In this document: piece after piece, positions 12,283-14,804 of the stretch
Layout: every line of letters starts with the position of its first letter
Position numbering within the stretch: the first letter of the stretch is position 1
DNA from: a virus
Lineage: Duplodnaviria; Caudoviricetes
Direction: 5' to 3' (one strand)
IMG/VR virus record: IMGVR_UViG_3300022865_000009
Coordinates: 1-53,814 of that record
Length of the DNA stretch: 53,814 nt
Position numbers and translations under genes: made by a program
Notes under the pieces: generated by a model
What the model saw: only the letters and a program-made list of their open reading frames with translations
Told to the model about the DNA's origin: nothing
Databases searched by the model: none

Positions 12283-13200
12283 ATGGCTATATCACGATCA
12301 CAACTAGTTAAAGAACTAGAGCCAGGATTGAATGCACTATTCGGCCTGGAATACAACAGATACGAAAATCAGCATGCGGAAATTTTCCCTGCTGAGGCGT
12401 CTGACAGAGCTTTTGAAGAAGAAGTAATGTTAAGCGGTTTCGGTTCAGCACCAGTTAAACAAGAAGGTGCTGGAGTAGTGTTCGATCAAGCTCAAGAGAC
12501 TTTTACAGCTAGATACACACACGATACAATCGCATTAGCATTCTCTATTACAGAAGAAGCTATTGAAGACAATCTGTACGACAGACTTGCAGCTAGATAT
12601 ACTAGAGCACTTGCAAGATCTATGTCTAACACAAAACAAGTCAAAGCGGCTGCTGTTTTAAACAATGGACAAATTACTACTGCTATCGGTGGTGATGGTG
12701 TGTCTTTGGTTAATGCTGCGCATCCGTTAGCAACTGGTGGAACGTTCTCAAACGTACTAGCTGTTGCTGCTGATTTGAATGAAACATCGCTTGAGCAATC
12801 TTTGATTGACATTGCAGGTTTTGTTGACGAAAGAGGACTAAAAGTTGCTCTTAACGGTACTAAAATGATAATTCCAAAAGAATTACAATTTACTGCTGAA
12901 AGACTAATGAAATCACCTCAAAGAGTCGGCACTGCTGATAATGATATCAATGCAATGGTTAACATGGGAATGATTCCTGAAGGATACAGAGTTAATAACT
13001 TCTTATCTGACACTGATTCATTCTTTATTCTTACTGATACGCCTAACGGATTTAAACATTTCGTTAGATCACCTATCAAAACTGCTATGGAAGGCGACTT
13101 CGATACTGGTAACGTAAGATTTAAAGCTAGAGAAAGATACAGCTTCGGTTGGTCTGACCCTAGAGCCGTGTTTGGTAATGGAAACTTACCTACAAGCTAA
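12283..13200 (+). CDS. Major capsid protein (HK97 fold, Mu gpT-like)
   Basis: 305 aa; MAISRSQLVKELEPGL start, FSITEEAIEDNLY, KARERYSFGWSDPR; strong SD; terminator follows. Confidence 0.92.
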   Translation: MAISRSQLVKELEPGLNALFGLEYNRYENQHAEIFPAEASDRAFEEEVMLSGFGSAPVKQEGAGVVFDQAQETFTARYTHDTIALAFSITEEAIEDNLYDRLAARYTRALARSMSNTKQVKAAAVLNNGQITTAIGGDGVSLVNAAHPLATGGTFSNVLAVAADLNETSLEQSLIDIAGFVDERGLKVALNGTKMIIPKELQFTAERLMKSPQRVGTADNDINAMVNMGMIPEGYRVNNFLSDTDSFFILTDTPNGFKHFVRSPIKTAMEGDFDTGNVRFKARERYSFGWSDPRAVFGNGNLPTS

Positions 13201-13235: not shown

Positions 13236-13274
13236 AAAAGGGGTGGTGCATTAATTTGCATTGCCCCTTTTTTT
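13236..13274 (+). terminator. Rho-independent terminator
   Basis: AAAA-GGGGTGGTGCA-ttaatt-TGCATTGCCCC-TTTTTTT after the capsid gene. Confidence 0.85.
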
Positions 13275-13290
13275 ATGTTAAGAAACCACA

Positions 13291-13755
13291 ATGTTCTTGA
13301 GTTCATTTAAAATAAACAATAATTTTAAAGAAACAATCAAAACAGAAATATTAGGTCTTAAAAAAAATTGGAAAAAAGATTTAAATAATGTTAAAGCATT
13401 AACGTCAGGTTTTTTTCCAAACTATTTATTTTTTGATATTTTAAAAAAACAACTTTCTAATAAATTATTTGAGCTCACAAAATCAAAATATAAACCATCT
13501 TGTTGGTGGGCTAATTATTATAATATTGGTCACTATGCCGATGCTCACTCTCATCAACCAGAACACATAAGTAGTATTATTTTTATAAAAACAGATGACA
13601 CAAATCCTTTATATTTTAATTTAAATCCTGGTATTCTTAAAGTTAAAGAAGAAGAAGGATTAGTTCTATTATTTGATTCAAAAATAGAACATGGTGTAGA
13701 TTTTTGCAAAAGCCCAAGAATTACACTGGCCATAGATTTTGTTAAGGATAATTAA
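13291..13755 (+). CDS. Putative 2OG-Fe(II) oxygenase
   Basis: WANYY..HSH, LLFDSKIEHGV, RITLAID: double-stranded beta-helix signature. Confidence 0.75.
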   Translation: MFLSSFKINNNFKETIKTEILGLKKNWKKDLNNVKALTSGFFPNYLFFDILKKQLSNKLFELTKSKYKPSCWWANYYNIGHYADAHSHQPEHISSIIFIKTDDTNPLYFNLNPGILKVKEEEGLVLLFDSKIEHGVDFCKSPRITLAIDFVKDN

Positions 13756-14259
13756 ATGTCTATATTTAAAGAATTTGATTTTAGTGAAGTTTTAAATAAA
13801 AAAGATTTTGAAACTAAAGCAATAGAATATCTTAAAAAATATCCTTGTTGTGATAAAAAAAATTGCACACACCCCCTTTTTCAAAGTGATTCCGAGTTAT
13901 GGAAAGACAAAGATTTTTATCTAATAGCAGAAAAAATAGCTTCAATTATTTTTAACCATTATCAAAAAAAAATTCATTTAAAAATAAGAATGTGGGCTTA
14001 TTATCAAAAAAAAGATTCAATTCTAGATAGTTATGAGTGGCACAATCATTACAGAGGTGAATCTAAAGAAGAGCTTTCATTTATTATATACTTATCAGAC
14101 ACGGAATTAGGAACATTATTTAAAGTAAACCAAAATATAATTACTTTAAAACCTAAAAAAAATATTTTATATGCATGGAATTCAAAATATGAGCACACTC
14201 CAGAATTAGGTAAACATTTACAAAATAGAGTTATTTTGGCTGGAGATTGTTTAATATAG
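13756..14259 (+). CDS. Putative 2OG-Fe(II) oxygenase-like protein
   Basis: WHNH, SFIIYL, WNSKYEHTP, RVILAGD. Confidence 0.7.
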   Translation: MSIFKEFDFSEVLNKKDFETKAIEYLKKYPCCDKKNCTHPLFQSDSELWKDKDFYLIAEKIASIIFNHYQKKIHLKIRMWAYYQKKDSILDSYEWHNHYRGESKEELSFIIYLSDTELGTLFKVNQNIITLKPKKNILYAWNSKYEHTPELGKHLQNRVILAGDCLI

Positions 14260-14294
14260 TATTTGTGTGTATAATATAAACACTTAGAATAAAT

Positions 14295-14356
14295 TATTAT
14301 GTAGACTGACTAAGCAGACGGTATAGAGACTACATAGTATAACCGCTATACAGGAG
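14295..14356 (+). promoter_or_regulatory. Structured 5' leader (candidate cis-regulatory RNA pseudoknot)
   Basis: 10-bp stem 14295-14304/14330-14339; loop GTATAG complementary to CTATAC next to the AGGAG SD; TGTGTATAAT -10 element upstream. Confidence 0.5.
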
Positions 14357-14364
14357 AAACTATT

Positions 14365-14775
14365 ATGGCAAACACAACTTTTTCAGGCCCGGTTAGATCC
14401 GAAAATGGCTTTGAATCAATTACAAAAAACGAAACAACAGGTGCAGTTTCAGTAAACGCATCTTACGGAGCAACTATTACAGGTGGTGTTCAATCATTAT
14501 CTGGTGCAGGTGCAGTTGATCTTACAAACTTAGTTACAGAACTTACAACAGCCGCAGGTGCTGCTGCAGTTACTTTAGCTGATGGAACAACTTCAGGCCA
14601 AATCAAAATCATTACTATGGTTGTTGATGGTGGCGGAACTGCAACTGTTACTCCAGCCACTTTTGCAAGTGGAACAACTTTAGCTTTCGATGCAGTGGCT
14701 GAAACAGCTACTTTAGTATGGAATAGCTCTATAGGTTGGATTCTTTCTGCAGACAGAGGTGTTACAATAGCTTAA
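14365..14775 (+). CDS. Putative virion structural protein (head fibre/decoration)
   Basis: MANTTFSGPVRS start; Ala/Thr/Gly-rich beta protein; strong SD. Confidence 0.7.
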   Translation: MANTTFSGPVRSENGFESITKNETTGAVSVNASYGATITGGVQSLSGAGAVDLTNLVTELTTAAGAAAVTLADGTTSGQIKIITMVVDGGGTATVTPATFASGTTLAFDAVAETATLVWNSSIGWILSADRGVTIA

Positions 14776-14786
14776 TAAATAATTAG

Positions 14787-14804
14787 TGGCTCCTTCGGGA
14801 GCCA
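14787..14804 (+). other. cUUCGg tetraloop hairpin
   Basis: TGGCTCC-TTCG-GGAGCCA, intergenic, no U-tract. Confidence 0.75.

Follow-up and report, generated by a model that had tools for sequence, protein, structure and literature searches.

A predicted double-pseudoknot leader RNA at the ribosome-binding site of a putative virion appendage gene in HTVC023P-like pelagiphages

The locus and the parts of the leader

We analysed the IMG/VR virus record IMGVR_UViG_3300022865_000009 (53.8 kb, 89% complete) over its full length, here called the window. It represents an HTVC023P-like pelagiphage, and its capsid protein shares 86.9% identity with that of Pelagibacter phage HTVC023P. The major capsid protein gene (ORF 12283-13200; identified by phrog_371, PF25209 and, weakly, PF10124 Mu-like_gpT) is followed by a terminator (13236-13271), by two 2OG-Fe(II)-oxygenase-like ORFs (13291-14259), and then by the leader investigated here. 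At the DNA level, the only match in the phage database was HTVC023P, confined to window positions 14262-14412, which comprise the leader and about 50 nt of the ORF behind it. In HTVC023P, the capsid terminator adjoins the same TATAAT and leader, and helix P1 of the leader is altered by compensatory changes. The parts of the leader are listed below, with conservation in alignment A3 and in the capsid-anchored sample described in the next section.

14270-14275, + strand: TATAAT, -10 hexamer of the leader's predicted own promoter
14281-14367, + strand: whole element, leader of the MANTTFSGPV gene
14281-14339, + strand: match to covariance model R1 (72.1 bits, E = 2e-12)
14283-14287, + strand: PKa 5' strand CUUAG, at or beside the predicted first mRNA base
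14295-14304, + strand: P1 5' strand TATTATGTAG, pairing with 14330-14339
14305, + strand: junction A between P1 and P2, unpaired and conserved (invariant column in A3, also found in HTVC027P-type and Mu-gpT-DE leaders)
14306-14308, + strand: P2 5' strand CUG, pairing with CAG at 14315-14317
14309-14314, + strand: P2 loop, made of A14309 (A or G in relatives) and the PKa 3' strand CUAAG (14310-14314)
14315-14317, + strand: P2 3' strand CAG
14318-14320, + strand: junction ACG, of which AC is conserved (A38 and C39 invariant in A3) and the third base varies
14321-14326, + strand: PKb 5' strand GUAUAG, complementary to CUAUAC at 14346-14351
14327-14329, + strand: junction AGA, unpaired, invariant in A3 and near-invariant in the capsid-anchored sample
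14330-14339, + strand: P1 3' strand CTACATAGTA
14340-14345, + strand: variable linker UAACCG, holding ACCG
14345-14369, + strand: predicted alternative hairpin of GCUAUA (14345-14350) with UAUGGC (14364-14369), incompatible with PKb, that would mask the AUG
14346-14351, + strand: PKb 3' strand CUAUAC, flush with the Shine-Dalgarno sequence (SD)
14352-14356, + strand: SD, AGGAG
14365-14775, + strand: gene that the leader would regulate, for a 136-aa MANTTFSGPV... protein (start ATG at 14365)

P1 consists of ten pairs, including one G-U, around a 25-nt hairpin loop, and its 3' strand stops 12 nt before the SD. The order of strands from 5' to 3' is the PKa 5' strand, a linker (14–24 nt up to P1 among relatives), the P1 5' strand, A, the P2 5' strand (CUG), A or G followed by the PKa 3' strand, the P2 3' strand (CAG), AC, a segment X that holds the PKb 5' strand, AGA, the P1 3' strand, a second linker, and the PKb 3' strand at the ribosome-binding site (RBS). 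About seven unpaired bases are conserved in the element. A previous reading made from the sequence alone had singled out the TATAAT, both strands of P1 and the mini-hairpin CTG-ACTAAG-CAG, and all of these are present where it placed them. PKa, CUUAG (14283-14287) with CUAAG (14310-14314), had gone unnoticed in that reading. The R1 match is single copy in the record, the next best in 53.8 kb scoring 15 bits, and a single copy of the 33-nt core is present in the window (expected number 0). The minimum free energy (MFE) of 14276-14380 was -17.3 kcal/mol, compared to -10.1 ± 2.6 kcal/mol for 200 dinucleotide shuffles (z = -2.73; one shuffle was as good).

The position of -10-like hexamers suggests that the leader is transcribed from its own promoter. 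In 138 of the 215 elements examined among the matches listed, such a hexamer ended 6–8 nt 5' of the PKa strand, while 51 had none under the rule used. By eye, a -35-like TTCACA usually lies within the terminator loop behind the capsid gene and precedes the TATAAT by 17 nt, and the outer stem of Mu-gpT-DE (Rfam family RF03012, discussed below) likewise begins a few bases after a -10-like hexamer. Given this spacing, the mRNA should begin at the PKa strand, with a predicted start 0–2 nt before it. Strandless contigs from four metatranscriptome runs cover 14268-14800, which is not proof of transcription, and one of them extends upstream into terminator-like letters. The available part of the HTVC027P transcriptome paper (PMC12753301) has no promoter or gene-level text for the downstream gene, and PMC9599517 mentions no promoter, terminator, intergenic or noncoding feature.

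The product of this gene is called a putative virion appendage or adaptor-like protein from its predicted structure. AlphaFold with a diverse alignment (pLDDT 85.9) gave a floppy N-terminal stretch of 40 residues followed by a beta-sandwich; a first prediction based on 29 close relatives (pLDDT 46.4) was discarded. With Foldseek, the sandwich resembled the N-terminal docking domains of the CBA120 tailspike TSP4 (E = 1.4e-5, TM 0.50) and, more weakly, a phage capsid spike and T4 gp9/gp10. At E ≤ 0.001 we found 2781 homologues among proteins of similar length and 2087 cluster representatives, none of them named. Residues from about 35 to 136 recur at the C-terminal end of proteins of up to 1266 aa, and proteins encoded downstream of the leader share their N-terminus and diverge after it. 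The first 12 residues, and nothing more, are common to the window's protein and the 'cement protein' of phage DSL-LC04. Sequence searches of the PDB with these two proteins returned nothing usable, Pfam and PHROGs gave unknown-function or marginal matches only for the downstream proteins, and the ESM Atlas yielded viral hypotheticals only.

Distribution, covariation and gene association

We surveyed relatives of the leader with sequence patterns, for which all counts refer to IMG/VR contigs among the matches listed. The exact-core pattern was found in at least 118 viral contigs, which gave 80 distinct leaders. Capsid homologues in the cultured or complete phages HTVC027P, 023Pt_psg01 and freshwater DSL-LC04 have diverged leaders in the same slot, and patterns built from these retrieved further sets, the first with at least 120 contigs, two of which we read as chance matches. 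The pattern for class E (classes A to E are our own labels) matched 98 contigs, 95 of them with the upstream partner and 86 distinct, and a third pattern matched 110, of which 85 were genuine by our criteria and 42 distinct. In total, the A-CYG-R-loop-CRG-AY core was represented by 289 distinct elements among the matches listed. Only two contigs of metagenome-assembled genomes carried the core, and they are probably binned phage DNA. The leaders of MinM2 and CRP-901 contain GACTGAC and lack the double-pseudoknot plan, and that of CRP-901, a Roseobacter phage, is a Mu-gpT-DE RNA.

We also assembled a capsid-anchored sample of 80 loci fetched via the capsid protein (76–100% identity). R1 matched 54 of these loci (E ≤ 0.01), every one on the gene strand, and 18 more had a leader recognisable by eye or regular expression, which brings the total to 72 of 80. 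Seven of the eight leaderless loci end within 140 nt of the capsid gene, and the remaining one (L644) has neither the gene nor the leader within 1271 nt. An apparent invariance of 27 nt of the core was rejected as an artefact of the exact-match search pattern, given that many variants occur in the capsid-anchored sample. At loci with additional genes behind the capsid gene, as in the window and in L598, L607, L616, L618, L619, L626, L633 and L647-L652, the leader stays directly 5' of the MxxTTFxGP gene, and it therefore belongs to that gene rather than to the tail of the capsid gene. In every case the partner was a virion-protein gene of the MxxTTFxGP or MGFATHLGPW type, and no metabolic gene was found in this place.

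The comparison of homologous leaders, which had been proposed together with the original fold as a way to check it, revealed strong covariation in two alignments and among the variants of PKb. The seed alignment A3 holds 38 sequences, chosen out of 217 distinct elements as the 47 with a 17-nt linker minus nine near-duplicates (by eye). Here, 92.7% of helix cells were paired compared to 74.7% in shuffles, none of 500 shuffles matched the alignment, and sliding the partners by 1–3 columns lowered pairing to 20–46%; all ten P1 pairs and three of the five PKa pairs were changed on both sides. Alignment A5 consists of the 54 R1 matches (51 distinct) at loci located via the capsid protein and not via the RNA, and was fitted to R1 for P1 and P2, not for PKa. 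In A5, 94.3% of cells were paired (0 of 500 shuffles; 23–44% in slid controls), reaching 99.5% in P1 (columns 35-42/78-85), and 16 of 18 pairs had both-side changes, including five of five in PKa and one of three in P2.

Outside these alignments, an exact complement of the P2-loop strand lay upstream in 195 of 196 and in 284 of 289 distinct elements among the matches listed. Three of the five elements without it were read as stray regular-expression matches, one had a G-U pair, and in the fifth (L161) the partner lies downstream, on the SD. PKa occurred as nine helix sequences, namely CUUAG:CUAAG (window), CCUAG:CUAGG and its mirror CUAGG:CCUAG, ACUAG:CUAGU, CUGAA:UUCAG, CUGAAC:GUUCAG, CUGAAU:AUUCAG, CUGGG:CCCAG and CCAAG:CUUGG, to which HTVC027P-type leaders add ACUGUA:UACAGU and ACUAUAC:GUAUAGU. 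P2 was less variable, with CUG:CAG in 286, CCG:CGG in two and CUG:CGG in one of the 289 elements among the matches listed, and CG:CG in HTVC027P-type leaders. Helix letters thus drift freely between close relatives while pairing stays. On this comparative evidence, the element folds as a double pseudoknot with four covarying helices, P1, P2, PKa and PKb.

The third helix and its relation to Mu-gpT-DE

The pairing of GTATAG (14321-14326) with CTATAC (14346-14351), directly before AGGAG, had already been pointed out in the sequence-only reading, and this helix, PKb, covaries in relatives. An alternative register of CGGT (14319-14322) with ACCG (14342-14345) exists in the window, but ACCG precedes CTATAC in only nine of 81 distinct leaders of the class, so that this part of the proposal fell away. 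In class A, to which the window belongs, GUAUAG:CUAUAC was found in 87 of 88 leaders among the matches listed, and CUAUAC was absent from the search pattern. The PKb 3' strand of class A begins 24–17 nt upstream of the AUG, and in the window's class its gap to the SD was 0–2 nt in 28 of 46 leaders, while it overlapped the SD by 2–4 nt in ten of 46. Class-A-like variants were compensated, with ACUAUAG pairing with CUAUAG (L303) and CUAUAG with CUAUAG-GAG (five loci), or kept a G-U pair (GUAUGG). The 33 class B leaders among the matches listed had at least ten different helices in the same place, such as UAGUAG:CUACUA, UUGUAG:CUACAA, GUAGCAG:CUGCUAC, ACAUGC:GCAUGU, GUUAUAG:CUAUAAC, GUAUUAG:CUAAUAC and CGUAG:CUACG. 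When 46 elements were tested one by one, only ten had an observed helix equalled by 10 or fewer of 200 shuffles. Given that single PKb helices (4–7 pairs) are no better than those of shuffles, the support for PKb comes from covariation at a fixed place.

In other leaders, the third helix lies on the SD or the start codon itself. It overlaps the SD in close relatives of the window and in HTVC027P-type leaders (CCUAG:CUAGG-AG, CCUUA:UAAGG-AG, CCUAA:UUAGG-AG), with the CUAGG-AG overlap found in 85 of 110 loci of one pattern search. In class E, an anti-SD CCUC(AA) pairs with (UU)GAGG of the SD in 82 of 86 distinct leaders. In class C (74 leaders among the matches listed), X has the form (N)GCC(R), its best partner is the UGGC of AUGGC in 66, and CCCA goes with AUGGG in two. 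The element is thus a structured RNA at the RBS of its own gene, as an autogenous operator is, and the position of the third helix beside the SD, on the SD or on the AUG, depending on the class, points to control of ribosome access.

In the window, the alternative AUG hairpin was predicted as the MFE fold of the tail alone at -5.9 kcal/mol, compared to -3.9 kcal/mol for the PKb duplex. Among the matches listed, MFE folding of the tails alone gave the same pairing for 85 of 88 leaders of class A, 22 of 34 of class B and none of 73 of class C. Covariation of this hairpin was weak: L083 fits (CCUAUAC with AUGGG), L236 does not, and a local GGC/GCC hairpin explains the change in L083 equally well.

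An Rfam scan of window positions 13900-14800 at E ≤ 10 matched no family, only chance-level rows for mir-15 and C0719, in line with the original statement that the leader resembles neither the SAM-II/SAM-V nor the ribozyme consensus. None of nine class representatives matched Rfam at E ≤ 10 either. Among 20 loci scanned at gathering thresholds, the sole match was the CRP-901 leader, which scored 72.3 bits as RF03012 (Mu-gpT-DE; gathering score 49 bits) in the same slot and up to the AUG. A pattern for the RF03012 consensus retrieved at least 120 contigs, and 14 of 15 such loci matched the model at gathering (58–73 bits), compared to none of five double-pseudoknot loci; the model matched none of 13 double-pseudoknot loci other than the window, and the window itself stays below the gathering score. 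In 109 distinct RF03012-type leaders among the matches listed, X has GCC with AUGGC (96) or (C/A)CC with AUGGG (13), with no exception. We take this as a predicted pseudoknot between X and the start codon, beyond what the Rfam model contains.

Like the window element, Mu-gpT-DE lies behind a gpT-like capsid gene and has the MxxTTFxGP gene as its immediate downstream neighbour; in the window, the two ORFs mentioned above are inserted between the Mu gpT-like major head gene and the leader. By eye, Mu-gpT-DE can also be mapped onto the same order of outer stem, A, inner hairpin, AC, X, (A)GA and outer stem, and the window follows this order with X pairing at the RBS, which is our reading and not the Rfam definition. 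The window element departs from the RF03012 consensus structure, however. The outer stem of Mu-gpT-DE has four pairs and its 3' strand CAGG is part of the SD, whereas P1 of the window has ten pairs and is clear of the SD; its inner hairpin has five pairs and a 9-nt loop, whereas P2 has three pairs and a loop that pairs with the 5' end; and it has no 5' tail, hence no PKa, while PKb of the window sits 5' of the SD. We therefore read the window element as a larger variant of the Mu-gpT-DE kind that is not in Rfam, and RF03012 as the smallest form within a single superfamily, linked to the other leaders by class C, a mapping made by eye. No Rfam model matches the leader, but it is less new than had been proposed, given that RF03012 fills the same slot of related phages with the same helix order. 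Rfam types Mu-gpT-DE as 'Gene; sRNA' and 'downstream element', with a model that ends at the AUG. Mu-gpT-DE is a candidate RNA, presumably from the 2017 work of Weinberg et al. No mention of Mu-gpT occurs in the main text of that paper (PMC5737381), and we found a single passing one in PMC7657543.

A literature search found no paper describing this leader. A catalogue from 2023 lists 10,006 candidate viral RNAs ('csRNAs'; PMC10690425), which are similar to the window element in coming from IMG/VR-type viral contigs and in including cis elements upstream of structural genes, as far as the accessible portion of that paper indicates. Its accessible text does not name the MxxTTFxGP gene, pelagiphages or Mu-gpT, and its supplementary lists may include the element.

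Possible roles of the leader

Given that the third helix is always on or beside the RBS and that the element never leaves its gene, control of initiation is the most economical reading. We would give about an even chance to a leader that gates ribosome access to the virion appendage gene and responds most likely to a protein; such an effector fits best because the element is associated with a single gene. In this mechanism, a promoter belonging to the leader, shortly behind the major capsid gene, would start the mRNA. The first half of the P1 loop forms P2, whose loop pairs with the predicted 5' end of the mRNA (PKa), and the second half pairs with the six bases that immediately precede the SD (PKb). 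PKb and the AUG-hiding hairpin would compete for the CUAUAC strand, and formation or breakage of the fold would switch initiation, with the balance set by a protein, possibly the gene's own product in autogenous control. A point against this mechanism is that the direction of the switch is inconsistent between classes: in C, D, E and RF03012 the SD or AUG is itself part of the fold, which should close the RBS, whereas the fold would free the AUG in the window's class, whose leader has the anatomy expected of a two-state switch. With only about seven conserved unpaired bases, a specific binding surface is not evident, and since the paired letters differ readily from one close relative to the next, a protein that reads this RNA would have to do so by its shape.

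Known systems offer partial precedents for this gating by a protein. Pseudoknots in the leaders of T4 gene 32, of rpsO (S15) and of the alpha operon (S4) control initiation once there is a surplus of the encoded protein. Similar to the window element, they are pseudoknotted leaders at or beside the RBS of one gene. They have no sequence or model similarity to it, however, and the window's product is no known nucleic-acid binder; none of the Rfam ribosomal protein leaders matched the window, and the L20 leader model reached 26.7 bits, below its cut-off of 58.7, on the terminator region of HTVC023P. Leader control of the ribosomal protein and gene 32 type is partly restated in section 2.6 of PMC10690425, within the portion available.

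The few conserved unpaired bases and the drift of helix letters with pairing kept would also be expected if only shape matters. A leader without effector, in which the fold would bury the 5' end against 5'-end-dependent decay, as a 5'-terminal mRNA stabiliser of the ompA-leader type would by pairing of the first few nucleotides, and would fix a tuned initiation rate with no switching, is somewhat doubtful but deserves consideration, given that the PKa 5' strand commonly falls on the predicted first bases of the mRNA and that the outer stem of Mu-gpT-DE starts near a -10-like hexamer too. A single 5' hairpin would protect the end, however, and neither the constant, elaborate fold nor the pairing with SD or AUG is needed for stability; moreover, no leader of this kind precedes the capsid gene, the one required at the highest level. 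The sequence-only reading had favoured a riboswitch-like or protein-binding translational switch. A conserved, structured cis RNA adjoining the SD of a virion gene was indeed found, but the constant virion partner argues against its metabolite version. A small-molecule riboswitch, in which the double pseudoknot is the aptamer and a ligand stabilises PKb and alters access to the RBS, is in our view improbable. Such a role would agree with the compact, covarying pseudoknot adjoining or containing the RBS, with the junction A, R, AC and AGA conserved across classes, and with several expression-platform variants around one core, as riboswitch families often have. The SAM-II/SAM-V, preQ1-I/II and guanidine-III riboswitches likewise use a small pseudoknot whose 3' strand reaches or adjoins the SD for translational control. 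Unlike these H-type pseudoknots, the window element forms two pseudoknots from one hairpin loop in a virion-protein context that suggests no ligand candidate; it also conserves very few unpaired bases and matches no riboswitch model of Rfam 15.

The remaining explanations are far less probable. The restriction of DNA similarity with HTVC023P to the leader, and downstream proteins alike at the N-terminus and different beyond, could suggest a DNA-level element, either a promoter-proximal site or a recombination linker for exchanging the variable C-terminal domains that the downstream gene encodes. This is very unlikely, given that all four helices, including the two pseudoknots formed by strands far apart, have compensatory changes of the sort expected for RNA pairing. 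We give slightly less credence still to a free-standing small RNA or a 3' element of the capsid mRNA, the role that Rfam assigns to Mu-gpT-DE and that the position downstream of a gpT-like capsid gene could imply, given that the SD and AUG lie at most 30 nt further on and no terminator intervenes, that a terminator and the -10 hexamer lie upstream, that pairing reaches the start codon, and that the element stays with the downstream gene across insertions. Small ribozymes often have a double-pseudoknot topology and often occur in phages, and a self-cleaving ribozyme could trim the mRNA to a 5'-OH end; this seems scarcely credible for an element that matches none of the Rfam models for hammerhead, twister, twister-sister, pistol, hatchet, HDV-like or other ribozymes, has a helix order that is not known from such ribozymes, and conserves few unpaired bases.

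We also consider, as a tentative possibility, that the fold is a true sensor. It would then be an aptamer of a new class, binding either a small molecule or a protein of the phage or its host, and would set the timing or amount of virion appendage protein synthesis. As part of this reading, one core would be wired to at least five RBS-occluding platforms, with Mu-gpT-DE as the minimal form. If so, production of a virion appendage protein would be controlled in this way in the ocean phage group that is the most abundant one known.

Whichever role applies, a double-pseudoknot leader is common to many abundant ocean phages and is probably among the commonest structured viral RNAs in the sea. The orphan family RF03012 also gains a context, as the 5' leader of one gene with a predicted start-codon pseudoknot and as kin to a larger set of leaders not yet filed in Rfam. 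Hosts such as SAR11 are not genetically manipulable. The natural variants, in which the same core pairs with the SD, with the start codon or with bases flanking the SD, provide material for testing how translation of late phage proteins may be gated in such hosts.

Variant leaders and the Rfam element Mu-gpT-DE

Mu-gpT-DE (Rfam RF03012), which sits in the same slot in related phages (locus L125, 3494-3552; loci L456-L575), forms a start-codon pseudoknot that is absent from the Rfam model, pairing GCC with AUGGC in 96 of the 109 distinct leaders and (C/A)CC with AUGGG in the other 13. Its outer stem, judged by eye, begins a few bases past a -10-like hexamer. Mu-gpT-DE is a 5' leader rather than an sRNA or a 3' element.

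Two viral loci carry variants of the double pseudoknot. In L161 (about 2560-2700), where the gene start reads MGFATHLGPW, the P2-loop strand is CCUAG; an upstream partner for it is absent, and CUAGG is found downstream, on the Shine-Dalgarno sequence (CUAGGAG). The PKa partner seems to have shifted to the 3' side. The leader of phage 023Pt_psg01 (L123, 3940-4030) has two helix sequences in common with the window's class, with their positions exchanged: its 5'-tail pseudoknot is ACUAUAC:GUAUAGU and its ribosome-binding-site pseudoknot is CCUAG:CUAGG. Chance could account for this swap, or the fold may be pseudo-symmetric.

Synechococcus phage MinM2 and its twins have a GC-rich leader, possibly a further variant, in the same slot (L126, 1528-1632), in which the hairpin CCGAGCCC-GACUGACGGCAG-GGCUCGG contains the CUG..CAG mini-helix; PKa and PKb were looked for in this leader, and neither was found.

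The capsid terminator and a probable accessory-gene slot

The features of the window that bear on the slot and on the downstream gene are as follows.

13236-13271, capsid terminator
13291-13755, 2OG-Fe(II)-oxygenase-like ORF 1
13756-14259, 2OG-Fe(II)-oxygenase-like ORF 2
14365-14775, ORF directly behind the leader

In L001 (3975-4015) and most loci examined, the loop of the capsid-gene terminator is TTCACA or TTTACT and lies 17 nt upstream of TATAAT; therefore, this hairpin seems to carry the -35 element of the next promoter, a reading made by eye only, on loci with the usual arrangement.

Between the terminator and the leader's -10 hexamer, the window holds the two oxygenase-like ORFs (terminator and ORFs together span 13236-14259). 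In HTVC023P and most relatives the hexamer directly adjoins the terminator, and different genes occupy the slot in the relatives L598, L607, L616, L618, L619, L626, L633 and L647-L652. The slot looks like a hot spot for accessory-gene insertion.

A constant arm and a swappable domain

The protein encoded at 14365-14775 combines an N-terminal arm, conserved over ~16 residues, with a beta-sandwich that is swappable (AF2 model, pLDDT 85.9). This sandwich is similar to the docking domains at the N-terminus of the CBA120 tailspike TSP4, and it recurs at the C-terminal end of proteins whose lengths reach 1266 aa. At the DNA level, similarity to HTVC023P ends ~50 nt inside the ORF, which suggests that domains are shuffled downstream of an unchanging leader plus arm.
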